Source of the DNA: Eubacteriales bacterium
GTDB taxonomy: Bacteria > Bacillota > Clostridia > Oscillospirales > CAG-272
Assembly (NCBI GenBank): GCA_045593885.1
Contig: JAZNXN010000034.1
Span: forward strand, 10,692-74,691
Reading direction: 5' to 3'
Length of the DNA: 64,000 nucleotides
Every line of letters starts with the position of its first letter. The first letter of the stretch is position 1. The translations under genes were made by a program, and so were the position numbers. The notes under the pieces were generated by a model. It worked only from the letters and a program-made list of their open reading frames with translations. It was not told the origin of the DNA and did no database searches. Of the stretch, positions 43,887 to 61,581 are shown piece by piece.

Positions 43887-46464
43887 ATTCCTGCGCCCCC
43901 TTTCTCTCTACAAGCTCAGAGTTAGTCCAGAGCTTGCACCTTGTATTATATTGCCGGTTTTCACGGATGATAAATCTTGTTGGATGATGCAGCGTATCGG
44001 TGTCACAGTCCACTCTTATGCCCGAGAAATTATCGTGTATTTTATTTTTCTCAAGAACGGAAGCAGTGGTTGCACCCTTGTTCGCAAGAAAATAGAACGC
44101 GCCCATATCATTTCTCTTTGTAGTCGTACCCAAGGTGGCGTGCACCTCGTACATCTCGGTGTATACCGATGCCTGAGGACCCATACTGGGTCTGCCCTCA
44201 TAATCAAGGCTGTGGTTGCCCGTAATTCCAATGTTACCCACTACGGTGGTGAGTATATTAGGCTCTGCCGAGAACATCGGTGCATCTTTACGCCAATTGC
44301 CTGAATGGTTGTTATAGGGCTTTTCGTCAATTTGGCGGAGTGTGGAGTTCACTACCACAGAGCCCCCGCGGTAGAGTATGTTATTTGCAACTATCGACTC
44401 ATAGTTTGGCGGGTAGGTCTGAAGGCATGCCGCCGTTTCAATATAGTTTTTATCAAGAATGTGCCGTCCGTTAAACACACCCATAATAAACACCGAGCTA
44501 TTGTCGGGAATAACGTCCCATGGTCTGTCGATTATAACGAGATTTCCCTCTATTGCTTCAACAGCTCTGAACTGTCCCATTCCCTTGCCCGATATTATGA
44601 CTGCATTGAGTCCGTGCCACTCTCTGTCATCACGCTTATGAGCCGTGAGCGCGGCAAGAAAGTTGTGCTTTCTGTATGGGGTTCTGTGTGTCGGTACGCC
44701 GTTAGGGATACCGTCAAACACCTGCGGCGCGTACTCGGTCACCAGCTCACAGCCGTGTGCCGCCGCCTTGCCAAAGAAATAGGTTCCGTGGTCGTCGTAG
44801 GTTATTCCCTCACGGTCACCCCACAGACAGTGTATGATTCTGTTTCTTGCTACGTAGTTAAAGAAATTTCCAACGTAGGAATTATTAGGCCATATCGACG
44901 AGCCCGCTACCAGACCTATCGTGGTCATCAGATTATCCTCTGCCGTAACCCTGTTGCACGCGCGGAAATATATACCGCCGGCTCCCGCCTTTATATGGCA
45001 TGAGCGAATTGCAGAGAAAGAACAGCGCGACAAATCAACACCCATATGATCAGCGTATATTTCGCTATTCTCTATCACAAGATTTTTAACGCTCTGCGCC
45101 AGGAATGCAACACCTATCATTTCTCTTGCGGTTTCTATCTTCTCGGAAATGACAAACGTGGAATTGTATATTCTGACTCCGTCACCGTGCACGTATGCAA
45201 GATTGCCCTCCTTGGTATGAAGGAAATCAAAATAAACGTTATTTACCTCACTTCTGGAAAAGAAATTCACCGAGCCGTACATATTCACGCGCACGTCGCC
45301 CTCACCCACGAGCCTGACGCCCTTACCTATGCGGATAGGGCCCTTCACAAGATATTCTCCTTCTGTGAGAGTGAGAGCTCCGCCGCCGCATTTTTCAAGC
45401 TCCAAAAGTGCTGTATCTATCGTGTCGAACATATCATCATCGACAGGATTGAGGGTGATGTGAGCTTCACCGCGCTTATAGGCAGGAACGCAATCTATCC
45501 AATCGTGGCGCGACCAGCCGCACTCGCCACCGTAGCCGTTATGTACCCATATATCGTATCTGCCGAGAGGAAGATCGCTCGCCCTTGCCCTCACGCAATA
45601 TTCATCGGAAAAATATACATCCAGGGGATATTCGCATCCATCCCTCTGCGACACAAGCTTCACACGCGCAGCACCGTTAAGGAAAAGGGCATTACCCATC
45701 ACCTGAACCGTTCCGTTTTCTGTTATTTCCTCACCGTCATCTGCAATAAACCACCACGCGTTGGGGGCATTTACGAGAACCTCGTCGCTCTCGCCGTAGC
45801 TGTTTTTTATTTTTACCGAATATATGCCCATAGACATATCCTTGGGGATGGTGAACATTATATTTTCATCGCTGACCATAAGGGGCTTCAATTCTCTCAT
45901 ATCCTCGCCTGCAAATTCGTCGGCAAGGCGCGTCAAAAGAACAGTTGAGTCGTTTTCAAAATTCACTCCAAGCATATTGACGGTTTCGTCGGGCAAGCTC
46001 GTATGGTTATGCCAATAGACAAGGGCAACACCGTCCGCCGTTCCTTCAACCCTTACTCTGTCCGCATCGGTAAATACGAGGGGGCTTTCGTTGAGATATG
46101 CAAGCTTGTCAATTCGATTTTTCTCGCAGTACTCGTCAACCGAGAAGGGTTGAGGGCATACTCCGTCCCTTGCATAAATATCAAAGAATAGCATAACCGC
46201 AAGCTTAATAGAATCATAGCCGAGACCCTCAAATACGAGATTATCCCCCTCGGTGTAGAATCGGGCATCGCCACGCGCGTAGTCCAACGGATTCTCAGAA
46301 AAAACAATCTTCTTTTCCTTTCCGCTATTGCTCGGCTCCGCTCCGAAAAGCTTGAGCGACCTTGCTATAAACGCTTTTTTGGCGTTTTCCTCAGCAAAGC
46401 TTTCTGAGTGAATACACTCCGCCGAATACTCAGATACTTCATATCCCAAAAGCTGTCTGTTCAT
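43876..46464 (-). CDS. Large beta-helix-repeat protein, probable glycan-degrading enzyme
   Basis: IDTAL...GGGALTLTEGEY...GVRLVGEG followed by parallel beta-helix repeats; no obvious signal peptide. Confidence 0.6.
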   Translation of the reverse strand: MNRQLLGYEVSEYSAECIHSESFAEENAKKAFIARSLKLFGAEPSNSGKEKKIVFSENPLDYARGDARFYTEGDNLVFEGLGYDSIKLAVMLFFDIYARDGVCPQPFSVDEYCEKNRIDKLAYLNESPLVFTDADRVRVEGTADGVALVYWHNHTSLPDETVNMLGVNFENDSTVLLTRLADEFAGEDMRELKPLMVSDENIMFTIPKDMSMGIYSVKIKNSYGESDEVLVNAPNAWWFIADDGEEITENGTVQVMGNALFLNGAARVKLVSQRDGCEYPLDVYFSDEYCVRARASDLPLGRYDIWVHNGYGGECGWSRHDWIDCVPAYKRGEAHITLNPVDDDMFDTIDTALLELEKCGGGALTLTEGEYLVKGPIRIGKGVRLVGEGDVRVNMYGSVNFFSRSEVNNVYFDFLHTKEGNLAYVHGDGVRIYNSTFVISEKIETAREMIGVAFLAQSVKNLVIENSEIYADHMGVDLSRCSFSAIRSCHIKAGAGGIYFRACNRVTAEDNLMTTIGLVAGSSIWPNNSYVGNFFNYVARNRIIHCLWGDREGITYDDHGTYFFGKAAAHGCELVTEYAPQVFDGIPNGVPTHRTPYRKHNFLAALTAHKRDDREWHGLNAVIISGKGMGQFRAVEAIEGNLVIIDRPWDVIPDNSSVFIMGVFNGRHILDKNYIETAACLQTYPPNYESIVANNILYRGGSVVVNSTLRQIDEKPYNNHSGNWRKDAPMFSAEPNILTTVVGNIGITGNHSLDYEGRPSMGPQASVYTEMYEVHATLGTTTKRNDMGAFYFLANKGATTASVLEKNKIHDNFSGIRVDCDTDTLHHPTRFIIRENRQYNTRCKLWTNSELVERKGAQEYEA

Positions 46465-47749: not shown

Positions 47750-49303
47750 TTAGGTAAGCGCATTATACTTGCTTATCGCGGCGTTAAGCGCGTTGGTCTT
47801 CGGTGACCGATAGGTTTCCCAAAGTCCTGCAATATCCTGATCGCCGTTTGTTATCATTTGCTGGAATATCTCCGTAAATTCCTGAGCCTCGGAATTTTCC
47901 AGCTTCGCAAGGTTTTCCCAAACGAATGAAATGTTTACGTCAATGGCATCGTAGATGATATCGAGCATAGCTCTGGTATCAGAGCCAAGATCATACTTGA
48001 GTCCAAGTCCGTCTGTGTAGTATTTCTCGCGCGCAGGCTGGCTCATTATGCTTGCATACTGCCAGAATGCACTCACTGCCTCGAAATCTCCGGTCTTGAA
48101 TATCGCTCCGACAGATGCGTTGTTATGCATAAACGCCTTGTATTCATCGGTTTCATAGAGCTTCGGCAGAGGAATGGGGCATATCTTCATGCTGGAAAGG
48201 TCAGCGCTCTCAAGATTGTAAAGCTTGAGTCCAAGAGCGAATAGGGACCGATTCTTAAGGAATACATTCTTAACATCGTCAGCCGCACCTGCTCCGTAAC
48301 CGTAATCAATAACGGTTGCAACCTTATCACGCAGAGTGGTGAGCGAGGAAAGATTCTGTATTGTGTTGAATTGATATCCGTTACCGTTATTTACAATGTA
48401 ATCGATATCCGCGGAATATACGAGTGCCATATTGGAAAGACGGGTTGTATGGCCGAGCTCTCCCGAATATACTATTCCGTTCTCGTCGTTTTCATCGTGA
48501 CCGATTTCCGAGCCTGTATTGTTGTATGCGAGCGAGGCGTAGGTTGCCATTCTGTCATAGGTCCATGCATCGTCAGCCTCACCCTTTATCATCTCATAAA
48601 AATACTTGACACCCTCTGTGCCGTTTCCGTTTTTAGCCTCAAGAACCTCCTCGTTTACAAAAAGAATATCAAGGGTACGGATTACGTCGATAAAGTAATC
48701 ACCTGCGATAACGAACATCTTACCGTCTTCCAGGTCCGCGCCAAGCGAATATGCCTGCAAAACGTCAGCGAACCAGCTCTCATCGGTAAAATCGAAATAG
48801 TTGGTCTTGTCAGTTCTGTTGCAGTTTGAGAGAATGCCCATCATCATTACGCGGACGACGCCTGCGGTCATGTTTGCTACTGCATCGGCAAACCCGTCGT
48901 GTGCATCATACTTAGTCTTAAGAGTATCAGCAAGAGTACCCGTGTTGTCGTTAACGTACGTATAATTTACGTTCAGACCGAGCTTGCCCTTGACGTACTC
49001 GTTTCTGTTGTACACAGCCATAAGTATCGGGTCATTATCGTTTTTCTGGTCATTATCCTCAAGTCCGTTCATGTACTTCGCCGTGGAAACGCCGTTTCTC
49101 TCTGCATCCTGATTTCTGGACATACAAATAGTAATGGTCTTTCCGTCAAAGTTTACGTCCTTGAAGCGATCCTCACCCGTACCGGTTACCTCGGTAGGAC
49201 CGTCGCCGTCACCGTCGCCGTCACCATTGCAGGCTACGAGAGCTGACATAACGAAAACGAGCGCGAGGATAAGACAAATAAGTCTTAAAATCTTACTTTT
49301 CAT
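47750..49303 (-). CDS. Extracellular solute-binding lipoprotein (paralog of 27761-29326)
   Basis: Lipobox LVAC, DG repeats, shared GTGEDRFKD, YFIDxxR and PIPLPKLY motifs. Confidence 0.7.
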   Translation of the reverse strand: MKSKILRLICLILALVFVMSALVACNGDGDGDGDGPTEVTGTGEDRFKDVNFDGKTITICMSRNQDAERNGVSTAKYMNGLEDNDQKNDNDPILMAVYNRNEYVKGKLGLNVNYTYVNDNTGTLADTLKTKYDAHDGFADAVANMTAGVVRVMMMGILSNCNRTDKTNYFDFTDESWFADVLQAYSLGADLEDGKMFVIAGDYFIDVIRTLDILFVNEEVLEAKNGNGTEGVKYFYEMIKGEADDAWTYDRMATYASLAYNNTGSEIGHDENDENGIVYSGELGHTTRLSNMALVYSADIDYIVNNGNGYQFNTIQNLSSLTTLRDKVATVIDYGYGAGAADDVKNVFLKNRSLFALGLKLYNLESADLSSMKICPIPLPKLYETDEYKAFMHNNASVGAIFKTGDFEAVSAFWQYASIMSQPAREKYYTDGLGLKYDLGSDTRAMLDIIYDAIDVNISFVWENLAKLENSEAQEFTEIFQQMITNGDQDIAGLWETYRSPKTNALNAAISKYNALT

Positions 49304-49505: not shown

Positions 49506-50900
49506 TTATTCTTCAAAAAATGCCGCCAATTCCTCCGCAGTTGCCAATATACCGTAGTCGGAATATTCAAAAATCGGCGCATTCCTGTCGGGATTTACCG
49601 AAATAACCGTGCCTGACCTCTGCATTCCCGCTACGTGATGAACGGCTCCGCTCACACCTACCGTTATGTAAACGGGGGGTGCTACCGTTCTGCCCGTCAA
49701 ACCTACCTGAGAATTATAGGGTGTATATCCATTATCAACGAGCTTTCTTGTAGATACCGGCTCTGCATTCAGATGCTCTGCAACGGCACGTATTCCGTCT
49801 ATGGAATCCTTCGCACCAAAGCCTATCGCAACTATTATATCACGGCTATCGGTTACCGTTCGCACGGTTGCCATAGCAGGACGTGTTCTGCTCTCAATTT
49901 TCGCAATTATGCTTCCCGACAGCGCAGGGCGGCTCATAATGAGCCTTCCGTTTTCGACCGACAGCTCCGTGCAATCGGCACAAAGTCCAAGGCCGAGCAT
50001 CGCAGACGTCCTCGCGGCAAGCTCCTTTGAGAGAGAATCACTGCCCCATAGCACTGCGTCGGGAGAAAGCTCCTCTATTTTTTTAGCCAAGAAATCGGCA
50101 TCGGTCAGCTCGAGCACTGCTATATTGTCACTTACCGCTTCGGCAAACGCGCGGGGCGATTCACCTACTATGCACACACAACCGAGCCTTTCGTCCGAGC
50201 GCGTGTCCGTGTGTGCTCTGCTCTTATCCTTTTCAAGTCCCTTCGCGATAGCGTCGTTAAGCTCACTAAGCTCGATGAATTTGCATCTGCGCTTTCCCGA
50301 TTCATTCTCAAAGGTTTTGAGAACTCTGGTGGGCGAGCCGCGAAGCCCGCATCTGTCGGCGTCTGCACCGATATCCTCGGCACTCCATACCTCTATCTCT
50401 CCCATTCGGGACATAATGCTCGGAAGCCTCAGGGTATTTATGCGCTCGATTGTGAGAAGTGCGGGAAGCGGTACGCTTCTCGCTCCCAAATCTCTCGTCG
50501 TACAGGTTATGCTGTCGCCTATTTCATCAATGCTCATTACGTTGGTGATAAGAGAGGCGCCTGCGTATACCGATAGCATAGGACCCGTCTGTGCGGTATC
50601 GCCAACCAGTGTCTGACGTCCGCAGAATACAAGATCGGGGGACAGCCTTTTCAAAGCGAGCGAAAGCGCATAGGCTGTTGCGAGAGTATCAGCACCTGCA
50701 AAAGCCTTATCTGTGAGAAGCACCGCTTTTTTTGCGCCAAGACGGGTAAGGCGCAGAAGAAAATCGTGTGCGCTCGAGGGTCCCATACTGAGCAGGGTTA
50801 TTTCTGCCCCCTTTACGCGCAGAGCCGCTTCGTATGCCGAGGCATCAAACGGGCTTATCTCTCCGTCAAGCCCCTGGCGGACACAAACAACTATTTTCAT
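49506..50900 (-). CDS. Fused electron transfer flavoprotein beta-alpha protein
   Basis: N-terminal EtfB motifs (MKIVVCVRQ, GADTLATA, GRQTLVGDTAQ, GSPTRV); C-terminal EtfA motifs (GLCADCT, QVGLTGRTV, GVSGAVHH). Confidence 0.85.
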   Translation of the reverse strand: MKIVVCVRQGLDGEISPFDASAYEAALRVKGAEITLLSMGPSSAHDFLLRLTRLGAKKAVLLTDKAFAGADTLATAYALSLALKRLSPDLVFCGRQTLVGDTAQTGPMLSVYAGASLITNVMSIDEIGDSITCTTRDLGARSVPLPALLTIERINTLRLPSIMSRMGEIEVWSAEDIGADADRCGLRGSPTRVLKTFENESGKRRCKFIELSELNDAIAKGLEKDKSRAHTDTRSDERLGCVCIVGESPRAFAEAVSDNIAVLELTDADFLAKKIEELSPDAVLWGSDSLSKELAARTSAMLGLGLCADCTELSVENGRLIMSRPALSGSIIAKIESRTRPAMATVRTVTDSRDIIVAIGFGAKDSIDGIRAVAEHLNAEPVSTRKLVDNGYTPYNSQVGLTGRTVAPPVYITVGVSGAVHHVAGMQRSGTVISVNPDRNAPIFEYSDYGILATAEELAAFFEE

Positions 50901-50903
50901 TGC

Positions 50904-52382
50904 TTATCTTTTATCTCTCCTTGCATAAATCGGGGCAAGAGCATCGTGAATTTGCTTGTATATCTCAAACACTCTCTCGTAACGAACAGTATTTTCGGGG
51001 TTGGGATAAACTATATCCTTCGCCCTTACGCAATGGTCAACCGCATCCTCTGCATTCCTGAAAGCACCGACCGCAATTCCTGCCAGCATAGCAGAGCCGA
51101 GCGAGGAATCACTGCTCTCGGTAGTTCTTAGGGTGATTCCGAGTGCATCGGCTACCATCTGCCGCCAAAGCCTGCCCTTCGTTCCGCCACCGATTGCCGT
51201 AGCAACCTTATTGTACGGTATTTTGAGTGAATCAAGATACTTCTTACTGTCGAGTAAGGAATAGACAACACCCTCGAGCACCGCACGTGTAAAATGCGCT
51301 CTTGTATGCGTTGCGCGCACACCCGTGAAGCTTGCGCTGAGAGTGGGATCTGCATAGGGGGTAAGCTCTCCGTTGAGGTAGGGGTGGAATATAAGTCCGT
51401 CGCACCCTATATCTATTTCCGACGCCGCCTTGTCCAATTCCTTGTAATCTCCGCCGAAGGTATCCCTGTACCAACGGTAAGATGCCGCGCAGGATTTAGT
51501 AGCCGTACCCGGATACCAGAGTCCGTTTACTATATGAGAATAGTTAACTAAATGTCTGTCGGGGTAGGGCTTGTCGGTTATGACGCATATTCTGCCCGCG
51601 GTTGCGAGCTTCACGGTTACATCGCCCGTGCCTACCGCGCCCGAGGCAAACACCTCCATAGCCGTATCGGTAGTTCCGCATATGACCGGAGTTCCCTCCG
51701 AAAGACCTGTGGCATATGCTGCACTCGCGGTTACGGTGCCGACGATATCGGTAGGCTTTACAACAGGGGGAAGCATATCCTCGCTGATACCGCAAAGCTC
51801 GCAAAGCTCGTTATCCCAGCTCATGCTGTTGCAATCAAAGAGCATGCTGCCCTCTGCCTCAATATAATCGGTGCAGTAAACGCCCGTGAGGTAGTAACGT
51901 ATGTAATCCTTTTCGAAGAATATATATCTTACAAAGGAAAAGAGGTTGGGCTCTTTCTCCTTCAGCCACAGAAGCTGCGGAAGTGTCCATATCGTGTCAG
52001 GGCTGTGATAGGTTTTTTCAAATATCTCCGTACCCATTTTGTTCCTGAGCATCTGTGCCTGTGCGCGGCTTCTCGTATCCGTCCAATGCATAGCATTGCG
52101 AAGCGGTCTGAAATTACGGTCGCAGACAAGGGAAGTATGCGTGGCAGAATCAACTGCTACCGCCAAAATATTATCTGCGCGCACGCCACTGACCGACAAA
52201 AGCGCCCTGCAATTCTCAGAGAGCGCGGCTATCCAATCCTCCGACCTCTGCTCGCAGGCGCCCTCAGATGGATAGAGTGTGGGATATTCTACCGTATTCT
52301 CGGCAACTATATTGCCGTTTGTATCGATCAGCGTTGCCTTCGAGGCGCCGCCACCGAAATCTATACCCAAAAGATATTTCAT
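50904..52382 (-). CDS. FGGY-family carbohydrate kinase (xylulokinase-like)
   Basis: LGIDFG, WTDTRS, PYLNGELTP and RAVLEGV motifs. Confidence 0.88.
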   Translation of the reverse strand: MKYLLGIDFGGGASKATLIDTNGNIVAENTVEYPTLYPSEGACEQRSEDWIAALSENCRALLSVSGVRADNILAVAVDSATHTSLVCDRNFRPLRNAMHWTDTRSRAQAQMLRNKMGTEIFEKTYHSPDTIWTLPQLLWLKEKEPNLFSFVRYIFFEKDYIRYYLTGVYCTDYIEAEGSMLFDCNSMSWDNELCELCGISEDMLPPVVKPTDIVGTVTASAAYATGLSEGTPVICGTTDTAMEVFASGAVGTGDVTVKLATAGRICVITDKPYPDRHLVNYSHIVNGLWYPGTATKSCAASYRWYRDTFGGDYKELDKAASEIDIGCDGLIFHPYLNGELTPYADPTLSASFTGVRATHTRAHFTRAVLEGVVYSLLDSKKYLDSLKIPYNKVATAIGGGTKGRLWRQMVADALGITLRTTESSDSSLGSAMLAGIAVGAFRNAEDAVDHCVRAKDIVYPNPENTVRYERVFEIYKQIHDALAPIYARRDKR

Positions 52383-52385
52383 ATC

Positions 52386-53045
52386 CTACTCCTGATATGA
52401 GATTTTGTAATTTATTCCGCTGATTCCCGCAACTGCTCCGCGTGCGATAAGCGCCGCGTTTTCCTCGTGCGCTATCAGCCATTTGTTCTTGCGGAACAGC
52501 ATTTTGTCGTCAACTTCCTTTTCAAGCGCAACGTTAGTTCCGAGAGGAAGAGCAACCACACAGCCAAAGCCGTCGGTGTGTACCTCGCAGGGACAGAAAT
52601 GAAGGGTTGTTGCGTAAACCTCGATAACCGTTCCCTTCGGTACAAAAAACGCCTTCATTACCGAGGAATTGATTTTTCCGTCCTTAAGCTCGCAGCGTCT
52701 GCCGAGAATGAGCACAAGGTCGGTTACCGCCACGTTTATTTCGCTCGAGGTATGCCACTCCGCCGCATTGAGATAGTTACTGTGTCCCCAGCAATATCCG
52801 AGCTCTGTCGGCAGAGTACCGAACATTTTATCCGCTATTTCTTCTGCAACGGACAGACGTTCAAAGCGCTCCTCGCTCGCAACGTACATCGAGCCGCCGC
52901 CCTCGGGATTTTCTATTTTTTGAGCTACAGAAATAAGCTCGGATACGTCAATTCCGTCAATCACTCTGCCGTATTCGGCAAATTCAATGTCGTTTACCGA
53001 ATAAATCTTTACGTCGGGATTTTTTCTTCTTAAAATTTCAAGCAT
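52386..53045 (-). CDS. DUF4867-family protein
   Basis: FAEYGRVI, GYCWGH, EWHTSSEIN, YATTLHFCP, LPLGTN and NKWLIAH motifs. Confidence 0.8.
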   Translation of the reverse strand: MLEILRRKNPDVKIYSVNDIEFAEYGRVIDGIDVSELISVAQKIENPEGGGSMYVASEERFERLSVAEEIADKMFGTLPTELGYCWGHSNYLNAAEWHTSSEINVAVTDLVLILGRRCELKDGKINSSVMKAFFVPKGTVIEVYATTLHFCPCEVHTDGFGCVVALPLGTNVALEKEVDDKMLFRKNKWLIAHEENAALIARGAVAGISGINYKISYQE

Positions 53046-53049
53046 AAAT

Positions 53050-53901
53050 TCACCCTATAAATTCTATACTGTGCTCCTTATTCCAGGAGCCGTTTTTTTC
53101 TATTCTGATTATGCCTTCCTTAGTGGCAAAATTCTTGTCAGTGTCAAAGCGGTCGGGAAGTCCGCACCACGGTTCAAGACAGATGTACGGTGCGCCCGGC
53201 CTTGTCCAGAAAAGGATAAGACTCGTATTCGGGAATTTTACCCTCACCGCCCTATCCGAATATCTGTGCTTTATCAGTGCCTCCCTTGATTTCATATCCT
53301 CGAAAATCAACGCGTCGAAGCTGAAATAACCGTATTTGAGCGAAAGCGTGTCGCTGTCGGTTATTACGTCCTTTTTGTCGTATCCGAAGCCGTTTTTGTC
53401 AATCAGGGTGGTTTTTAGTGTTTCGCGGGTTGGGAATATAACGTCATATTCCTCTATTCCCTCAGGGCAAAGATAAGCCTCGTGAGAGCCTATTGAAAAA
53501 TACATATCTCCGTCCGTGAGATTTTTCACGTCGTAGCGCACGGCGAGAGTTTTCCTGTCGATGCGATAGGTAACGCGAAGCTCGTACTCAAATGGATAGC
53601 TTTTCCTGCTCTCCTCATTTGAACGGAGAAGAAGGGTTATAAAATCATCACCCTTCTCCTCTACCTCAAACACCGAGCTTTTCGCATAGCCGTGCTTTGG
53701 CAGAGTGTATCTTTTTCCGTTATAGAAATACTCGTCGTCGCATAGGCTGCTGCAAATGGGGAAAAGGATAGGCGCAGAGCCCATCCAGAATCTTTCATCT
53801 CCCTCAAATATTCGCTTTTCGCCGTCACACACTAGACTCTTTATCTCCGCGCCAAGCTCGTTTATTCTAATGCTGATATGCTCGTTTTTTATTTCAACCA
53901 T
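53050..53901 (-). CDS. Aldose 1-epimerase (mutarotase) family protein
   Basis: GAEIKSL, APILFPI, HGYA and YICLEPW motifs. Confidence 0.88.
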   Translation of the reverse strand: MVEIKNEHISIRINELGAEIKSLVCDGEKRIFEGDERFWMGSAPILFPICSSLCDDEYFYNGKRYTLPKHGYAKSSVFEVEEKGDDFITLLLRSNEESRKSYPFEYELRVTYRIDRKTLAVRYDVKNLTDGDMYFSIGSHEAYLCPEGIEEYDVIFPTRETLKTTLIDKNGFGYDKKDVITDSDTLSLKYGYFSFDALIFEDMKSREALIKHRYSDRAVRVKFPNTSLILFWTRPGAPYICLEPWCGLPDRFDTDKNFATKEGIIRIEKNGSWNKEHSIEFIG

Positions 53902-53927
53902 GCTTTTCCTGCCTTTCAGGCACATTA

Positions 53928-54722
53928 TTATTTTTTCTCTATCCAGGCGTGGTCGGGGTCGTTACTTCTGTTAAAGCCCTGATAGTCGCCTGCCATCAGC
54001 CAAAGGAAATAGCTCTTATATCCCGGTGTTGCGACGGTTGTGTGATAACCGTAGGGAAATTCCACAAGCTCGTCGTTTTTAACCCTGTACGCCTCGTCAA
54101 GCGAGCCGTCAGAGGTATAAAGGCACTGAACGGCAAAGCCCTGCTTTGGCTCAAAAAGGAAATAGTAAACTTCCTCTGCTATGCACTCGGCGGGCATATT
54201 GTCCTCGTCGTGCTTATGAGGGGGGAAGCCTGCCCAGTTACCCTCTGTGCAGTATGCCTCTCCGACGGTGAGAACCCTTGCGTTGGTTGTTCCGTCAACA
54301 AGGAAGCTCGTTTCTCTCTGGAAGGGAGGAATACCCAAAAGCTTCAGGGGCACTCTGTCCTCGCGAAGCAGCTGTGGCTCGGTTTTCTCATTAATGGGGG
54401 TTGCAACCACCGCAATCTTTATGCTATCGCGTGCTACGATTTCGAGCTTTTGCTCTATCGGCATATAAAAGCACTCTGCCCTACGGTTTTCAAACACCGA
54501 GGCTCTGTTTCCAACGTTTTCCCATACCGTGCCGTCAAAGCGCACGTCAACATGTCCCTCGAGCATCACGAAAGCAGTTTCCTTATCCTCTGTATCGAAG
54601 GCAAGCGACTGTCCCTCTGTAAGCTCGATTATACCGAACTCCAGCTTTTTAAGGCTGCATTCTCCTATCTTGCAGATGGGGGTGTAGCCGTTTTTTGATT
54701 TGTAGGTTTTCTTAAAGCTCAT
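53928..54722 (-). CDS. IolB/KduI-family isomerase (5-deoxyglucuronate isomerase-like)
   Basis: GNWAGFPPHKHD, EEVYYF, GYHT and YFLWLMAG motifs. Confidence 0.85.
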   Translation of the reverse strand: MSFKKTYKSKNGYTPICKIGECSLKKLEFGIIELTEGQSLAFDTEDKETAFVMLEGHVDVRFDGTVWENVGNRASVFENRRAECFYMPIEQKLEIVARDSIKIAVVATPINEKTEPQLLREDRVPLKLLGIPPFQRETSFLVDGTTNARVLTVGEAYCTEGNWAGFPPHKHDEDNMPAECIAEEVYYFLFEPKQGFAVQCLYTSDGSLDEAYRVKNDELVEFPYGYHTTVATPGYKSYFLWLMAGDYQGFNRSNDPDHAWIEKK

Positions 54723-55623
54723 AACCTCTCTCCTTCATGAAATTAACTGCGGTTTCGAAATCGGGCGAGCTCTCTCTCGCTCCGACACCCGTGCATTTAA
54801 GCGCGGATACCGCACTGGCAAAGCGGCAGCAACGAGCAAAATCATAGCCCTTGACAACCGCGGCGGCAAACGCACCGTGGAAAACGTCGCCCGAGCCGTT
54901 GGAATCCGCAACGGTGACGGGATAGACGGGATACTCGGTTATTTTCTCTCCGTCATACATAATTCCGCCCTTTTCGCCCTGCGTGATTACGATAACGCGT
55001 GGGGAATAGAGCTCCCACAGGCGCACGGCGGCATCCTTTGCTCTGTCGCATCCCGTGTGACCGAGAGCAAACTCCTCCGACGGAATCATAATGTCGGTTA
55101 GGGCGAGCAGTCGCTCAACCCCCTCGTAAAGACCGCCGCAGTCGTAAAGAACCAAGGTGCCGTTTTCACGCGCAACCCTCGCCGCCTCAACCGCCGCGTC
55201 AAGCTCGTTTCCGTCAACCATGAGAAGCTCCGCGCTCTTTATTGCCTCTTTCTGCTCGAAAGAAAGCTCAAGAGGGGGAAGATTTCCCTTATCAAAAACG
55301 CAGGTACGTGTACCCGTGTCGGCGCATAGCCAGAGCACCGAGGTAAACGAGCGATAACCGCCCTTTACGGTAACGAGTGAGGTATCTACTCCGTACTTTT
55401 CAAAGTCCTTGACGAGAAAGCTGCCGCTGCTGTCGTCCGACAGATTACCTATGTACGCCGCGCTCTCGCCAAGCTTGCTTGCGGCAACTATGCCGGTAGC
55501 AACCGGGCCTCCGCCCGCGAGCTTGCTCGCGAGTGCGCGCATCTTTTTATCCTCCGAGGGATAGGTTGGAACGTTGTAGAGCGTGTCCATAACACACGCG
55601 CCTATTCCCACTATTTTAGCCAT
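54712..55623 (-). CDS. PfkB-family carbohydrate kinase
   Basis: GGGPVAT, ITQGEKG and DSNGSGDVFHGAF motifs. Confidence 0.9.
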   Translation of the reverse strand: MAKIVGIGACVMDTLYNVPTYPSEDKKMRALASKLAGGGPVATGIVAASKLGESAAYIGNLSDDSSGSFLVKDFEKYGVDTSLVTVKGGYRSFTSVLWLCADTGTRTCVFDKGNLPPLELSFEQKEAIKSAELLMVDGNELDAAVEAARVARENGTLVLYDCGGLYEGVERLLALTDIMIPSEEFALGHTGCDRAKDAAVRLWELYSPRVIVITQGEKGGIMYDGEKITEYPVYPVTVADSNGSGDVFHGAFAAAVVKGYDFARCCRFASAVSALKCTGVGARESSPDFETAVNFMKERGYEL

Positions 55624-55625
55624 AA

Positions 55626-56465
55626 TTATGCCCTTCCGTATGCGCCGACGAGCTTTATCTTATCAAGCGCGACCAGCTTTACAGCCTCAACTGCCTTTTT
55701 CATAAATATATCGACTGCAAGGCTTCTCTTGGGATCGTCAAGCGACGTCTTCGTGCCCTCTGCGAACGCACAGCACACATCAGTACCGATATTCATTTTG
55801 CGAACACCCGCCGCAATAGCCGCCTTCACCTGCTCATCGGGAATACCCGAGCCGCCGTGAAGCACGAGGGGAATACCGCCGGTAGCCTTTCGTATAGCCT
55901 TCACTCTCTCGATGTCGAGACAGGGTGGCTTCTTGTAATGACCGTGTGCGTTACCTATCAGCACCGCAAGGCAGCATACGCCCGTTTCCTTCACAAACCT
56001 TGCCGCCTCGTCGGGATTGGTAAATTCGTCCATAGAATCGTCGTTTACACTTCCCACGTGACCGAGCTCGCCCTCGACACCTACGCCGATGGCATTGCAG
56101 ATTTCAACGATGTGCCTTGTATTTTTGATATTATCCTCGAGGGGATGAACCGAGCCGTCGTACATTATGCCCGAAAATCCCCAACGAAGCGCTCTCTGAG
56201 CCTCGATTTCCGAGGGACCGTGATCGAGGTGAAGGCAGATAGGAACACTCGCCCTGTGTGCCGCGGCAACTATTGCAGGCGCAAGGTAGAAGCCTACCTG
56301 CTCATTTACGAGTCTTGGATATATCTGAATTATTACGGGAGCCTTTGCTTCTTCTGCTGCATCAACCACTCCCATTACGGTTTCTACGTTGTATACGTTG
56401 AAGGCGGGGATGCAGTAGCCGCCCTTTTCTGCCATAGATATTATTTCTTTAAGTGATACTAACAT
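55626..56465 (-). CDS. Class II (metal-dependent) fructose-bisphosphate aldolase-family protein
   Basis: AFNVYN, HLDHG, EGELG, GNAHG, LVLHGGSG and KMNIGT motifs. Confidence 0.92.
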   Translation of the reverse strand: MLVSLKEIISMAEKGGYCIPAFNVYNVETVMGVVDAAEEAKAPVIIQIYPRLVNEQVGFYLAPAIVAAAHRASVPICLHLDHGPSEIEAQRALRWGFSGIMYDGSVHPLEDNIKNTRHIVEICNAIGVGVEGELGHVGSVNDDSMDEFTNPDEAARFVKETGVCCLAVLIGNAHGHYKKPPCLDIERVKAIRKATGGIPLVLHGGSGIPDEQVKAAIAAGVRKMNIGTDVCCAFAEGTKTSLDDPKRSLAVDIFMKKAVEAVKLVALDKIKLVGAYGRA

Positions 56466-56477
56466 TATACCGCCTCT

Positions 56478-57560
56478 TTATCCTAAAATCAAGTCCTCAA
56501 GAGAGAGAATCTCTACGTCAGTCGCAGCATTTGAGAGTGCGGCGTACTCGGACACCGACGCCGTGACTATCGTATCCGCGCCGACACTCTTTGCGTTGAA
56601 TATTCTTCTCTCGGACACCTTTTTGATGATTTCGGGCATATACTGAGCCGTCAGTATGTTTCCTGCCCAAACGGTTTCCTTGCGATTGAGAAGCATCTCT
56701 CCGAGAACCGCATAGGACATAACTATCTCACGCACCTCGTCGCTCTCCTCAAGGTCGCGCGAAAGCTGAGAGGGATCCTGAAGGGTAACCGTTCTGCCGG
56801 TGTTTTCAGCCGCAAGCCTTCCATCTCTGATAAGGGAAGCAACAAACGAGGTATAAGTAATCGCATTTGCCGAATATTCAACATCATACGCCTTGTAGGT
56901 CTGCTTTATCGACTTTGCATCCTGAGGGTCGTATATAACGACGGTCTTGTAATCGGAAAGCATCTTCGCGCAGGCGAGCATCTGCTCCTTCGTTTCGTTT
57001 GCCGCACCGATGAGGAAGTCGAGCTGAGCGCCCGAAGCCGCTTCGTCGGCAAGAACGGTGAACTCAACGCCTGCCTTCTCGAGCACGCGAATAGCCTTTA
57101 TCGCCTGACTCGGCACCATATATCTTGCATCTACGCCGAGGAAGAGCAAGGTATCGGTCTTCTTGCTATGCGCTTTTATCGCATCTGCAAGAGCTGCATC
57201 AAGCTCGGTTTTTCCGTAGGCGTTGCCTGTGTTAAGGCAATTTTCTACCAATACTGTTATGTATGCAGGAAGCTTGCCGTCAAGTGCTGCGAGAAGTCTT
57301 GTTTCCTTCGTGAACATAACGGGGTCCCATCCCGTAACGCAATCGTGTACGCATGCTCCGCAGCCCACGCACTCGTAAATGTTATCCATTATTTCCTCGA
57401 GCTCAATCGCACCTCTGTTTACAAGAGAAATACCGAGCGCTCTTGCGCGGGGGGTGCTTCTCTCGTGTCCGCTTGCGTTTCCTATCGGGCAGATGTGGTG
57501 ACACATCCAGCAGAATCGGCAGGCGTCTGCGTGCTGCTTGCTTTTTTCTGACATCATCAT
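56478..57560 (-). CDS. (Fe-S)-binding protein (GlcF/HdrD-like N-terminus, degenerate CCG domains)
   Basis: CRFCWMCHHICP and CVGCGACVHDC 4Fe-4S motifs. Confidence 0.8.
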   Translation of the reverse strand: MMMSEKSKQHADACRFCWMCHHICPIGNASGHERSTPRARALGISLVNRGAIELEEIMDNIYECVGCGACVHDCVTGWDPVMFTKETRLLAALDGKLPAYITVLVENCLNTGNAYGKTELDAALADAIKAHSKKTDTLLFLGVDARYMVPSQAIKAIRVLEKAGVEFTVLADEAASGAQLDFLIGAANETKEQMLACAKMLSDYKTVVIYDPQDAKSIKQTYKAYDVEYSANAITYTSFVASLIRDGRLAAENTGRTVTLQDPSQLSRDLEESDEVREIVMSYAVLGEMLLNRKETVWAGNILTAQYMPEIIKKVSERRIFNAKSVGADTIVTASVSEYAALSNAATDVEILSLEDLILG

Positions 57561-57573
57561 AGCTATATCCTCC

Positions 57574-59010
57574 TTATATACCGAGCTTGAACGGATTCAT
57601 TATACCGTTGGGGTCAAGCTGCTTTTTGAGTCCCTCAAATACCTGCATTGCAGGGCCGTACTGCTCCTTCATAAGACGTCCAAGCTTTATACCTACTCCG
57701 TGGTGATCGTTTACAACGCCACCATGTGCAAGAGCTGCTCTGACTCCGCAGGACCATACTGCCTGATGCAAGCGCAGTGCCTCAACGGGATCCTTGGGCA
57801 CGTCCTTACCCTCGATAATGAAGCGGTCGTAAACCATAGCGCCCCACTCGTACCAGTGAGAGAAGTGAGCGATGAACTTCGCCTGAGGGAAGTTTGTTTC
57901 GATTGCCTTCTTCATTGCCCAGTAGATTTCCTCAATCTTGTCGTAGGGGGCAATTGTATCCATAGTTCCGAACATCTGAGGAATATCCATCATGTGTCCG
58001 GGGTAGAAGAAGGTTATCTTCTCCTTCCACCATTTCTCTCCGTACTCTGAGCCAAGGTCCTCAGCGCCGTACTTGGCGAAGGTTTCAAGAAGAAGCTTCT
58101 CCTCAACCTCAACGAGCTCCTTGCAGCCCTCGATTGCAACGTTCATGAACGCGCCCTTGCGCTCAACGCCGACAATCTTCTTGATGAGCGAGGCGGTTTC
58201 AGCCTCGTCGTAAAGGCGCATAACCGATGGCTTGAACTTCTGGAGAAGCTCACGGCTCGCCTTGAATGCGCCGGTCATATTCTGGAACAAAAATCCGCGG
58301 AAGCGGCGCTCCTCAGGCTGATCGAATATTCTTATCTGCGCCTTCGTGATAATTCCGAGCGTTCCCTCAGTGCCGATGAATATCTGGTTGAGGTCGGGAC
58401 CTGCCGCATGCTTGGGTGCAGACGAGGTATTGATGATATCTCCGTTAGGAAGAACAACCTCCATCTGAAGCACCATATCGTCAATCTTTCCGTACTTGGT
58501 CGAGCATACGCCGATTCCTCTGTGAGCGAGGAAGCCGCCGACGGTTGAGCAGGTGAGGGATGAGGGGTAGTGCATCGTTGCCTTGCCAACCTCGTTTGCC
58601 GCCCACTCAATGTGCTTGTAGATAGCACCGGTACCGCACTCTATGTACATACCCTCGGTATTGACCTCGTATATCTTATTCATTCTCTTGGTGTCCACGA
58701 TAATACCGCCGCATACGGGAATAGCTCCGCCCTGCGTTCCGCCGCCCGCGCCCCAGGTGGTAACGGGAAGCTTGTAGTAGTTAGCGATTTTGAGAACCTT
58801 TGACACCTCGGTTGCGTTCTCGGGGCAAACGATTATGTCAGCCTCGGGCATACGGCATCCGCGGTCAGCCCACATACGTGAGAGCCAGTAGTAGTCAACG
58901 CTGTGCGTTACCTTGTCAATTGCTCTTGTCGAGCAGTTTTCCTTTCCGACCGCATCCTCAAGCTCGGTCAGAATCATTGCAAACAAAAATTCATTCATCT
59001 GATACTGCAT
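57574..59010 (-). CDS. FAD-binding oxidoreductase (VAO/PCMH family; alkylglycerone-phosphate synthase/YgcU-like)
   Basis: STVGG, STKYGKIDD, AAGPDL, GTEGTLGII and HHGVG motifs. Confidence 0.85.
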   Translation of the reverse strand: MQYQMNEFLFAMILTELEDAVGKENCSTRAIDKVTHSVDYYWLSRMWADRGCRMPEADIIVCPENATEVSKVLKIANYYKLPVTTWGAGGGTQGGAIPVCGGIIVDTKRMNKIYEVNTEGMYIECGTGAIYKHIEWAANEVGKATMHYPSSLTCSTVGGFLAHRGIGVCSTKYGKIDDMVLQMEVVLPNGDIINTSSAPKHAAGPDLNQIFIGTEGTLGIITKAQIRIFDQPEERRFRGFLFQNMTGAFKASRELLQKFKPSVMRLYDEAETASLIKKIVGVERKGAFMNVAIEGCKELVEVEEKLLLETFAKYGAEDLGSEYGEKWWKEKITFFYPGHMMDIPQMFGTMDTIAPYDKIEEIYWAMKKAIETNFPQAKFIAHFSHWYEWGAMVYDRFIIEGKDVPKDPVEALRLHQAVWSCGVRAALAHGGVVNDHHGVGIKLGRLMKEQYGPAMQVFEGLKKQLDPNGIMNPFKLGI

Positions 59011-59028
59011 TTTCTTATCTCCTTATAT

Positions 59029-60438
59029 TCAAACGGTTTTATCAACTTTAAGACTTGGGAAGTACTTGCAAAACTCCGAGAGCTCCTTGCGGTAGTCACC
59101 CTCTATCTCGACGAAGTGGTGTATGTAAGGACCGTCGATGATTCTGTCCTCGACCTTCTGCAAATCCTCGAACTCGCCCCAGAGGTACGTGCCACTGGTC
59201 GCAGGTCCGTCTGTTGTTTTGCAAACGAGGGGCAGAATTGAGTATTCTCCGCCGTCCTGGTCAATGCGCGCAACGGTGTAGGTTCCGTCCTTCGCCCTGA
59301 ACCATTCGCGCTGATTTACTATGCGTGCCGCGCTGTCCTTGCCGCTCTCCGCCTTCTGCGAGAGAGGGAAAAGTCCGCAATGCCAAAGAAGCTCCGCATT
59401 TTTATTTTCGGGATGGCGTACGGTGAACTCGCCAAACAGAGGCTTGCCCTTGCCAAGAGTTGCACATTTGAGAAGCGCCATTGTCATCGCGCAGTGAATA
59501 TCGCTCTCGCAGGATACGATATATCCCATATCGTTCAGCATTCCGTATACCGCGCAGGGAGCAAGACCGTCAAACATCACAGGCGTTGCCGTCCAGCACT
59601 CCGCAGAGAGAATATCAAGCTTGTATTCCTCAAACAGATGCTTGTATACCGCCGCCAGCGTTGCCATCGGGCGTATGTACTTGGGTGTCTGCTCGTCAAG
59701 CTCGAATTTCGAGAGGAAATATTTTTCGTATTCGGATATTTCCTCGGAGTAAAGCTCTGGTGCCGCCTTCATTCTCTGCTCTATGAGCGCGAAGTTTATG
59801 GGTATAATCTTGATACCGAATTTCTCCATCAGCTCGCCCTCGTTCCAGATAACTGAGTAGAAGGGCATCGGGCGTCCGCCTATCTGTCCTATACGCATTC
59901 CCGAAAAATTCTTGACCATGCAAACAACTCTTACAAATCTGTCAAAGCCCTCGGCAAATTCCGGGCTGTTAACTCTGCAAGAGGGCAGGTGCGAGAACGG
60001 AATGTGGAAGCGCTGGAACTGCCGCGAAACTCCGAACAGACCGCACTGGGAATCGGTGGTGCGTACTCCGTCGGGGCCGTATTCCTCATCAAGAGGTGCC
60101 CAGAGCAAAACGGGCTTACCAAGAGCCTTCGCAAGATCTGCGGCAATCTCCTCGTTTCCAAAGTTGCAGTTAATAATCATAACTGCGTCAACGTTCTCTG
60201 CCTTAAAGCGCTGAAGAAACTCCTCCATAGAAGCATCGTCAAACATAAGGTCGTTGCAGCCAAGCCCCTTGCTGTTGACAAACTCTACATTGTCGCTCGC
60301 AAAGTTTTTCTCGATGTAGCCGACGAACTCATCCGCGCGCTTCTCTGCCGCATCCCACGCAAACGGCATACCGCTGGGGCGCCGGCTGAGGTTTCTCCTC
60401 ATAGGCGCGAGGCCAATTTTTACCTTGTATTCAAACAC
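59029..60438 (-). CDS. L-fucose/L-arabinose isomerase-family protein
   Basis: NFGNE, DSQCG, ECWT, CESD, WHCG and PYIHH motifs; GTG start with GGAGG RBS. Confidence 0.82.
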   Translation of the reverse strand: MFEYKVKIGLAPMRRNLSRRPSGMPFAWDAAEKRADEFVGYIEKNFASDNVEFVNSKGLGCNDLMFDDASMEEFLQRFKAENVDAVMIINCNFGNEEIAADLAKALGKPVLLWAPLDEEYGPDGVRTTDSQCGLFGVSRQFQRFHIPFSHLPSCRVNSPEFAEGFDRFVRVVCMVKNFSGMRIGQIGGRPMPFYSVIWNEGELMEKFGIKIIPINFALIEQRMKAAPELYSEEISEYEKYFLSKFELDEQTPKYIRPMATLAAVYKHLFEEYKLDILSAECWTATPVMFDGLAPCAVYGMLNDMGYIVSCESDIHCAMTMALLKCATLGKGKPLFGEFTVRHPENKNAELLWHCGLFPLSQKAESGKDSAARIVNQREWFRAKDGTYTVARIDQDGGEYSILPLVCKTTDGPATSGTYLWGEFEDLQKVEDRIIDGPYIHHFVEIEGDYRKELSEFCKYFPSLKVDKTV

Positions 60439-60618
60439 AACAAAAAATCCTCCCGTTGCTTTTTTATTTTATTTTAACATAGCGCTCAAAGGATTGAAAT
60501 GCAAAAAACAATATATTTTTTGTAAAAAACGATACACTTTTGTAAGAAAGTGTGGTATAATAAAGCCAAAGGACTGTCTACCCCATCATTTTTAGAGAAG
60601 AGAGGCGTGAAAAAACCT

Positions 60619-61449
60619 ATGAAAATCGTTCCGTTTGAGGCACTCTACAACACTGAATTTCAGATAAACGAGCCAATGTCAAAAACGCAGGACTGGCACT
60701 CCCGCTACAATTATTATAACGCACTCGGAAGGCCGAAGATTTCTCACACCCTTCTGTGGATGAAGAACTGCTGTGCAACGGTAAGGGATAAGAGCGGATT
60801 TATCCTTGAGGTCGGGAGAAATCAACTGCTTTACACGGCAAAGGGCACGGAGTACAGAATTGATTTTCGCGATACGGGAGAGGGGGATGACGATACAGTC
60901 GTTATCCATTTTCAGTTGACCGACGCAAGCGGTGAGGATATTGCCCCCTCGATGCGGCCCGTTCTTTGCTTAAAAAACGTCGAATCATCTATGGCTATGG
61001 ATATGGATAATCTCGCCGAGGAGATGAAAAAGAATATCGTTTGTATGCCTAAGGTCAAGGCAATTATATACCGTATACTCGCCGCTATTTGTCAAAAACA
61101 AAAAAGCCGTGCTACAAAAAATAAGTACGCCTGCATCCGCACGGGAATTGAGCTTCTGGAGCAGGATTCGCGACTGAGCATAGCGCAAATCGCAGAAAAA
61201 AGCGGTGTCAGCGAATGTTATTTCAGGCGACTGTTTTGCGAGTATAGCGGCGAGAGTCCTATGACCTTTCGCCAGAGGCACAGAATAGAGAGAGCCAAGC
61301 AGCTCCTTCTCTCCGAGGAGCATTTCACTATAGGTGAAATTGCCTATCAGCTTGGTTTTTCCGACATATATCATTTCAGCAAAACCTTCAGTAAATTCAC
61401 AGGGTTGTCGCCGTCCGCCTTTCTCAAAAAGGCTACATTATTAAAATAA
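60619..61449 (+). CDS. AraC-family transcriptional regulator
   Basis: LSIAQIAEKSGVSECYFRRLF...IAYQLGFSDIYHFSKTF; divergent from the catabolic operon. Confidence 0.92.
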   Translation: MKIVPFEALYNTEFQINEPMSKTQDWHSRYNYYNALGRPKISHTLLWMKNCCATVRDKSGFILEVGRNQLLYTAKGTEYRIDFRDTGEGDDDTVVIHFQLTDASGEDIAPSMRPVLCLKNVESSMAMDMDNLAEEMKKNIVCMPKVKAIIYRILAAICQKQKSRATKNKYACIRTGIELLEQDSRLSIAQIAEKSGVSECYFRRLFCEYSGESPMTFRQRHRIERAKQLLLSEEHFTIGEIAYQLGFSDIYHFSKTFSKFTGLSPSAFLKKATLLK

Positions 61450-61581
61450 TAATCTCTTTTCAGCGCACTGTGCAAAGCAAAAAGCCCCGATTTCTCGGGG
61501 CTTTCCTTTGTTTTTGGGATAGGTTGCGGAGCTTTCGGATGCAAAAGCAACCAAAACAACTCTTTGATTAGGTCGAGGGAC

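Follow-up and report, generated by a model that had tools for sequence, protein, structure and literature searches.

Which sugar is degraded, and by what chemistry, by an operon that joins a FucI-like isomerase, a PfkB kinase and a class II aldolase to a flavoprotein related to alkyldihydroxyacetonephosphate synthase (ADPS), an Fe−S protein and an electron-transfer flavoprotein (ETF)? This gene set lies in a 64,000-nucleotide (nt) stretch of DNA from a CAG-272 member of the Oscillospirales (GenBank assembly GCA_045593885.1, contig JAZNXN010000034.1, positions 10,692 to 74,691), here called the window. The ten-gene operon is real and conserved as a unit, and it belongs to a widespread pathway; no description of that pathway, or of the function of the related Escherichia coli protein YgcU, was found in the searched literature, which did not extend to subscription journals and preprint supplements. 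What is new is the likely reaction order, drawn from rearranged and swapped loci. Our preferred reading, to which we give somewhat better than even chances, is that this order acts on a hexose bearing an anionic substituent, X, on C6. The ADPS-like redox module has no characterized counterpart in the searched literature, and the upper half of the operon is of a sulfoglycolysis-type design. The chances are about equal for and against the view that ADPS-type flavoenzymes with Fe−S and ETF partners form a new catabolic class that breaks a C−O ether or C−S sulfonate bond; if they do, cleavage of such a bond through flavin N5 and ETF, free of O2 and radicals, would be new chemistry.

A conserved ten-gene operon

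Ten open reading frames (ORFs), all on the − strand, run head to tail from 60438 to 49506, which confirms the extent originally predicted, and diverge from an AraC-type regulator gene:

59029..60438, −, FucI/AraA-family aldose isomerase, no Pfam match; likely entry step, aldose to ketose
57574..59010, −, ADPS-like FAD enzyme of the VAO/PCMH fold (PF01565 and PF02913); best PDB matches are ADPS
56478..57560, −, protein with two [4Fe−4S] motifs, GlcF/GlpC-like, CCG cysteines lost (Fer4 dicluster); predicted partner of the flavoenzyme
55626..56465, −, class II ketose-1-phosphate aldolase lacking the 6-phosphate residues of fructose-bisphosphate aldolase (FBA) (PF01116)
54712..55623, −, PfkB kinase, YihV/ketohexokinase-like, likely ketose 1-kinase (PF00294)
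53928..54722, −, IolB/KduI-family isomerase (PF04962; TIGR04378 passed); likely turns a substituted aldehyde into a ketone
53050..53925, −, aldose 1-epimerase (mutarotase) family protein, accessory (PF01263)
52386..53045, −, DUF4867 cupin of the SqvB/SftX family, accessory (PF16161; structure match 9GYY)
50904..52382, −, FGGY kinase (XylB model passed); likely phosphorylates a substituted hydroxyacetone
49506..50900, −, fused ETF beta-alpha (PF01012 and PF00766); top PDB matches LctB, EtfAB and CarDE
60619..61449, +, AraC regulator (family scan), divergent from the operon
61481..61504, +, terminator-like hairpin 3' of the AraC gene, a 10-pair stem with a T tail (consensus match only)

Successive operon ORFs are separated by 18, 13, 12, 2, −11, 2, 4, 3 and 3 nt, and family scans confirmed every label that the original prediction had given to these ten genes and the AraC gene. 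A promoter scan found 20 sites against 14.7 ± 4.0 in shuffled sequences, which is no excess, and no transporter gene lies within the window operon itself. Equivalog cut-offs were passed only by IolB (TIGR04378, 218.5 against 205) and the FGGY kinase (XylB TIGR01312, 386 against 380). The aldolase passes a subfamily model only, and the isomerase, PfkB kinase and flavoprotein score far below any named function.

Conservation goes far beyond chance: of the 599 pattern-matched GTDB stretches listed, at least 579 code for a relative of the flavoprotein. When the class Clostridia was sampled evenly, 47 of 399 genomes matched it, 41 of these at ≥65% identity; the flavoenzyme clade is thus present in about one-tenth of the sampled species, mostly uncultured gut bacteria, which implies that its food source is common, if still unnamed. 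The trait is patchy, since only 3 of 36 genomes of the same genus contain a match. A published neighborhood table suggests that two cultured species, Hungatella hathewayi WAL-18680 and Congzhengia minquanensis, have this gene set.

We pooled 193 loci, near-duplicates included and therefore not independent, with a flavoprotein identity of ≥58% to the window protein as the threshold; 110 of them are well flanked (≥2.5 kb on the upstream side and ≥8.5 kb on the downstream side). The FGGY kinase is encoded in all 110, the Fe−S protein in 109, ETF and IolB in 108 each, and aldolase and PfkB in 106 each, with the isomerase (81), DUF4867 (49), mutarotase (34) and a pair of NagA-like and NagB-like enzymes (NagAB; 19) being less constant. 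NagAB replaces the isomerase in 13 of these loci, and the regulator is RpiR in 72 and AraC in 15. Gene order is retained in most loci, the commonest order being found in 56. The predicted ETF-linked route for a modified sugar is thus kept as a unit, with enzymes that do not all belong to one characterized pathway.

Across the 80 nearest loci, the flavoprotein has a median identity of 94%, compared with 59 to 78% for the other core genes and 46 to 78% for the neighboring genes, a gap inflated by the choice of these loci by flavoprotein similarity; the unbiased class sample gives the same pattern (84% against 39 to 60%). The flavoprotein thus appears to be under unusually strong constraint. IolB (~78% and ~39% identity to the window protein) and the isomerase (~73% and ~45%) each occur in two interchangeable subtypes in otherwise identical operons (L122 to L161 and L001 to L080).

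Likely order of the reactions

IolB stands with the flavoenzyme, FGGY kinase and ETF in 12 of the 110 well-flanked loci, with aldolase and PfkB located elsewhere, mostly beside the isomerase or NagAB. Eight loci have the order flavoenzyme–Fe−S–IolB–FGGY–ETF, followed in seven of these by aldolase–PfkB, and four have isomerase–aldolase–PfkB and then flavoenzyme–(Fe−S)–FGGY–ETF–IolB; at L236, NagB–NagA occupies the isomerase slot after PfkB. In genome G177, the operon is split into isomerase–aldolase–PfkB–IolB and RpiR–ETF–flavoenzyme–Fe−S–FGGY. At locus L142, IolB is kept, but the places of PfkB and the class II aldolase are taken by an HpcH aldolase, a 2-hydroxyacid dehydrogenase and a tripartite tricarboxylate transporter (TTT) of the TctABC type. 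Loci L171 to L173 lack the isomerase, aldolase, PfkB and IolB; they carry a tripartite ATP-independent periplasmic (TRAP) transporter, a glycerol dehydrogenase and an FGGY kinase, joined in two cases by a short-chain dehydrogenase/reductase (SDR), a set that would be expected as the entry for an X-glycerol. Flavoenzyme pocket residues are alike in G177, L142, L171 to L173 and the standard loci. Distant ADPS-like genes (30 to 41% identity) lie, in most of the examples examined, beside FGGY genes together with a glycerol dehydrogenase, an SDR or GlpK/GlpD. Read most simply, three routes of entry would meet at a small shared intermediate, X−CH2−CO−CH2OH, which FGGY would phosphorylate for the flavoenzyme.

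The upper half of the operon resembles the sulfo-Embden-Meyerhof-Parnas pathways (sulfo-EMP and EMP2) in having a FucI-type isomerase, a PfkB kinase nearest YihV, a class II aldolase near SqiA, a mutarotase and DUF4867. The known members of those pathways are YihS or SqvD, YihV or SqiK, YihT or SqiA, and YihR or SqvB. The isomerase scores 102 bits on NCBIfam SftI against a cut-off of 700 and so does not count as an SftI/SqvD orthologue. Its nearest plasmid matches are annotated as L-fucose/L-arabinose isomerase family, and its nearest annotated relatives (36 to 37%) cluster with transketolase and DUF4038/DUF5060 genes, in what we take to be apiose-type clusters. PfkB has as its best structural match the sulfofructose kinase YihV (127 bits; the next match, 90), with 32% identity to YihV, 24% to YdjH and 23% to IolC of Ilyobacter. 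In YihV, K27, N109 and R138 form the sulfonate pocket, and D13 and S95 are ligands of the ring C3 and C4 hydroxyls (PMC8006165). The operon kinase keeps D13, K27, S95 and the catalytic D246; of the sulfonate triad, only K27 is conserved (98 of 99 sequences), N109 being V and R138 being N in 99 of 99.

The aldolase is 38% identical to an IolJ and 41% to YdjI of the E. coli octuluronate kinase–aldolase pair YdjH/YdjI, with which it shares a Cys at the position of FBA Arg259, and SqiA is among its top PDB matches; unlike the operon, ydj has no redox module. Residues Y25, Y49, R51, C231 and K256 are invariant (101 of 101), and alignment shows the loss of the Ser/Arg/Arg set that holds the 6-phosphate in FBA (PMC10665668). 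NagB-like add-on enzymes lack the TGS phosphate loop, and the residues of the NagA-like enzymes are not diagnostic. The absence of phosphate-site residues from PfkB, the aldolase and NagB-like enzymes implies that C6 of the ketose would carry a modification other than phosphate.

DUF4867 had been taken as a link to sulfoglycolysis. In the published network (PMC11968277, mmc2), sulfoglycolytic members form cluster 3, and operon-type members fall into the small clusters 12, 33, 39 and 45 or are singletons, although the window protein is not itself placed; the link is thereby weakened. The sulfoquinovosidase YihQ (NF007746), which matches in the K-12 positive control, was found in none of 41 carrier and 39 noncarrier genomes, a comparison not independent of family, and none was seen in the loci. 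The operon also contains no sulfolactaldehyde reductase or dehydrogenase; where sulfo-EMP and EMP2 excrete the C3 half, a module of five genes would here process it. The operon is not canonical sulfoglycolysis, though its upper half would work in like fashion.

The original prediction also held that IolB, PfkB and the aldolase mirror IolB/IolC/IolJ of inositol catabolism. This stands for IolB, which passes its curated cut-off, and for the families of the other two; PfkB itself, however, reaches 101 on the IolC model (cut-off, 300), and the 12 rearranged loci show IolB moving independently of PfkB and aldolase. Because PfkB is not IolC, the operon is not lower inositol catabolism. As to the predicted absence of iolE and iolD, both are below cut-off throughout the genome of the window (G000, 76% complete).

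From the gene content, modularity and residue conservation observed in these loci, we infer the following course. The isomerase would turn a 6-X-aldose into a 6-X-ketose (in the variants, an N-acetylamino form would enter through the NagA-like and NagB-like enzymes), PfkB would form the ketose 1-phosphate, and the aldolase would split it into dihydroxyacetone phosphate (DHAP) and 3-X-lactaldehyde. IolB would convert the latter into X-hydroxyacetone, and FGGY would produce X−CH2−CO−CH2−OP, an analogue of the acyl/alkyl-DHAP of ADPS. At the flavoenzyme, an N5 adduct would form at the X-bearing carbon with expulsion of X and, in the manner of nitroalkane oxidase, water would then free reduced FAD and hydroxypyruvaldehyde phosphate. 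Electrons would pass through the Fe−S subunit to ETF.

Several observations weigh against this course. The operon holds no enzyme for the aldehyde product, the commonest gene order (that of 56 loci) does not discriminate between reaction orders, and in G177 IolB sits with aldolase and PfkB. Loci L024 and L026 keep the isomerase, FGGY kinase and flavoenzyme, with IolB absent or a fragment and no PfkB orthologue in their incomplete genomes; a truncated ETF and an aldolase fragment give them the look of decayed loci, yet they fit a reverse order as well. In that order, which we regard as possible though improbable, isomerase and FGGY would give a ketose phosphate, the flavoenzyme and ETF would oxidize it or remove its substituent at C3, and IolB, PfkB and aldolase would follow as IolB/C/J do. 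It accords with the equivalog score of IolB, with the adjacency of IolB, PfkB and aldolase in the commonest order and in G177, with two short contigs (L169 and L170) in which a NagB-like gene immediately precedes the flavoenzyme, and with a Priestia plasmid (L165) that groups an IolB-like gene with tagaturonate reductase and altronate dehydratase. Against it, it is mostly aldolase and PfkB, not FGGY, that the isomerase or NagAB accompanies, PfkB and aldolase lack distal-phosphate residues, and the product of C3 oxidation would not be an aldose for IolB to act on. The Priestia cluster (L165:6178-12936) also contains aldehyde and alcohol dehydrogenases and suggests that IolB-family proteins can be uronate isomerases.

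The flavoenzyme and its partners

The modeled flavoenzyme (predicted local distance difference test [pLDDT] score, 95.5) has ADPS as its best fold match (template modeling [TM] score, 0.88), at ~25% identity. Its R265 and Y394 align with R352 and Y508 of Dictyostelium ADPS, and H436 and H437 correspond to two of the three loop His residues of ADPS, the first being Asp. In ADPS, R352 and Y508 are catalytic, and a substrate carbanion attacks FAD N5 as the acyl group leaves by way of an iminium, with nitroalkane oxidase cited as the adduct precedent (PMC3509576). A substituted-DHAP substrate and an N5 adduct would, by analogy, apply to the operon enzyme as well. It differs in that the residues of the ADPS acyl tunnel appear, on alignment, to be replaced by polar ones and the position of R447 by a residue other than Arg, in its catabolic context, and in its Fe−S and ETF partners, which imply a net redox reaction. 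If water rather than an alcohol were to attack the iminium, an aldehyde and reduced FAD would result, which would explain these partners.

Residues R396, N290, N434 and D435 are invariant in the 193 loci, and D351 and W386 occur in ≥99%. R396 lies beside the catalytic Tyr, at a position where alignment places a hydrophobic or aromatic residue in ADPS, in YgcU and in a Microbacterium homologue, and its invariance suggests an anionic group on the substrate. Two points temper this: the orientation of R396 toward the leaving group is deduced from alignment and strand alternation, and, as R447 of ADPS is not kept, R396 could instead stand in for phosphate binding.

The Cys-motif residues of the Fe−S protein (C14, C17, C20, C24, C64, C67, C70 and C74) are invariant in 50 aligned sequences. 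Complex prediction gave a score of 0.81 for the flavoenzyme/Fe−S pair against 0.00 for the best control; the mark is reached by 116 of 157 solved pairs and 2 of 215 mismatched ones, counts that hold roughly here because our own alignments were used. Runs share ≥79% of contacts with partner pLDDT of ≥90, and the Fe−S protein is predicted to dock with its first cluster motif against flavoenzyme residues 151 to 155, although this result may stem from likeness to solved flavoprotein/Fe−S pairs. The fused ETF is shortened. LctBCD and GlcDEF likewise combine a VAO-fold flavoprotein and an Fe−S partner, with an LctB-like ETF beta; the operon flavoenzyme, however, scores 187 on the GlcD model (cut-off, 568), and the residues of the His-His-Glu metal site of LctD/GlcD are not kept at the aligned positions.

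Kinship with YgcU, part of the original prediction, is distant. The E. coli ygc cluster (YgcU, YgcE, YgcW, YgcQR, YgcNOP), itself uncharacterized, also contains an ADPS-like flavoprotein, an FGGY kinase and ETF, but YgcU is 30% and YgcE 24% identical to the operon proteins, the YgcU pocket lacks R396, N290 and W386, and entry is through an SDR, with no such Fe−S partner, IolB, PfkB or aldolase. If the proposed chemistry is correct, whatever X is, the ygc cluster gains a testable reaction type.

Other relatives of the flavoenzyme point to further substrates. Clostridial ygc-type clusters (L146 to L149; SDR, FGGY, YgcU-like, ETF) include BCCT transporters, which hints at a quaternary-amine-substituted glycerol. 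A Mesorhizobium plasmid (L089:10495-20992) encodes a 41% flavoenzyme with R396, a xylB-like kinase, an ABC transporter and a class IV aminotransferase, no ETF, and an Fe−S homologue that has lost most cysteines. On a Microbacterium plasmid (L090:9950-15515), an ADPS-like gene with a hydrophobic pocket stands with GlpK and GlpD, a candidate cluster for alkyl- or aryl-glycerol ether cleavage. At L143:1242-9088, a 46% flavoenzyme has an Fe−S partner that retains the CCG cysteines and is accompanied by a creatininase-family hydrolase, UPF0261 and a fumarate-reductase-type flavoprotein, apparently another substrate branch.

The substituent and the surroundings of the operon

An anionic X would be favored by the invariance of flavoenzyme R396 (193 of 193) and of aldolase R51 and K256 (101 of 101). 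The loss of anion-binding residues from PfkB and the NagB-like enzymes counts on the other side, as it would fit a neutral X too. A neutral ether such as O-methyl, with the favored order kept, would agree with ADPS chemistry, which is C−O chemistry, and with the loss of YihV N109/R138, the FBA 6-phosphate residues and the NagB TGS loop. We consider it highly improbable given the three invariant basic residues and the TRAP and TTT anion transporters that supply enzymes with the same pocket; 6-O-methyl hexoses are also, to our knowledge, uncommon in gut diets.

Within the preferred reading of an anionic C6 substituent, the leading candidate, though a tentative one, is a carboxyalkyl (lactyl-type) ether, which would fit both ADPS C−O chemistry and R396. 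Genes that might deal with a released acid accompany some of the 193 loci: the operon contains or is immediately followed by an Ldh_2 dehydrogenase gene in 10 and an AEC exporter gene in 13, and LctD/GlcD-like and Etf genes adjoin it in 2; the TRAP binding protein of L171 is closest, weakly, to keto-acid- and lactate-binding structures (E values of 1e-23 to 1e-18), and esterase add-ons at some loci would suit such an ether, as would the MurQ-like genes of 10 of 41 carriers (2 of 39 noncarriers). The Ldh_2 and AEC add-ons cut both ways, because the best NCBIfam match of Ldh_2 is sulfolactate dehydrogenase, below cut-off, and a sulfoglycolytic neighborhood, too, has an AEC gene. It further counts against this candidate that an abundant natural 6-O-carboxyalkyl hexose, which we presume to exist in a Butyrivibrio exopolysaccharide, was not confirmed in the literature searched.

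A sulfonate, a little less probable still, would be favored by the homologies of the upper half and the entry of L171 to L173, which resembles one for 2,3-dihydroxypropane-1-sulfonate (DHPS). Against it stand the absence of YihQ, the changed PfkB pocket, the separate DUF4867 clusters, the NagAB variants and the lack of a link to AsrA, which scored above cut-off in 0 of the 41 carriers and 3 of the 39 noncarriers, giving no connection with sulfite reductase. One linked Gfo/Idh protein was checked, with no genome-wide search made, and has no SqgA-named (GH188) structure among its matches. The part of a 2026 review available to us names only oxygenase, glycyl-radical and lyase routes of C−S cleavage. 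Were X a sulfonate, about 10% of gut Clostridia species would degrade sulfoquinovose or DHPS completely and anaerobically with release of sulfite, an added sulfite source in the gut.

An O-sulfate, less probable again, fits NagAB and the nearby GH2/GH123 genes, but its intermediates would be labile. It also fits the lack of strong sulfatase matches in carriers: those with E values of <1e-45 occur in 0 of 41 carriers and 7 of 39 noncarriers, and 21 carriers have only weaker matches of 600 to 800 amino acids (aa), which we read as LtaS-like. GH123 occurs in 22 carriers and 11 noncarriers, which is not decisive. If X is a carboxyalkyl ether or an O-sulfate, modified glycan sugars would be degraded by a route that needs no etherase or sulfatase. 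Some other anion is an outside candidate. Reasoning also led us to reject 4-O-methylglucuronate and 4,6-pyruvate ketals, as the C4 hydroxyl must be free for aldol cleavage and the C4-OH ligands of PfkB are retained, and likewise O-acyl groups, for which esterases would suffice.

With X on C3, as in the 3-O-lactyl group of muramic acid, the aldolase would free X-DHAP directly, and IolB and FGGY would recycle glyceraldehyde. NagAB add-ons (19 of 110 loci), the lactate-type add-on genes and MurQ-like genes (10 of 41 carriers against 2 of 39 noncarriers, an enrichment confounded by family) are in keeping with this, as is a MurQ-like gene just downstream of the operon of L250, after its NagAB add-on. 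We nevertheless hold a C3 position for quite unlikely: entry is mainly through the isomerase (81 of 110), PfkB keeps the C3/C4-OH ligands D13 and S95 of YihV, and L142 and L171 to L173 do not fit. The MurQ-like proteins in carriers (L250 to L255) are short (~270 aa) and are paired with an XRE-type protein or with a kinase and RpiR.

The original prediction allowed a deoxy-, sulfo- or ether-modified sugar; the ether and sulfo types remain as candidates, and the plain deoxy type does not fare well. If the operon were another way to degrade an ordinary 6-deoxyhexose or hexuronate, the FucI-type isomerase would fit, and deoxy and uronic sugars exist as both aldoses and N-acetylamino forms. L-Fuculose and L-rhamnulose are excluded, however, since the products of FBA-type class II aldolases are 3S; X = H would demand hydroxylation of a methyl group, by a rough estimate unfavorable for a fermenter; and the genome of the window has, judging from ORF starts, a separate fucose/rhamnose-type locus on contig C47. 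A uronate offers no carbon for ADPS chemistry, and UxaC is already present in 33 of 41 carriers (16 of 39 noncarriers). We rate such a route as a slim prospect. The module analysis narrows a gene list that could not be assigned a substrate to a short assay panel.

Around the operon, a lipoprotein gene (47750-49303, −) that is solute-binding-protein-like and has no Pfam or NCBIfam match lies 202 nt downstream of ETF. It adjoins the operon in 1 of 80 loci and is outside the conserved unit; the genome has three copies, with paralogues at 27761-29326 of the window and on contig C6. Two beta-helix (pectate-lyase-like) proteins are encoded at 42918-46464 (−) under a second AraC gene, the 862-aa one having two paralogues (37 to 38%) on contigs C1 and C22. 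At 37655-39028 (+), a PqqD-fused radical SAM/SPASM protein is encoded beside an AMP-binding enzyme and a pyridoxal phosphate (PLP) decarboxylase.

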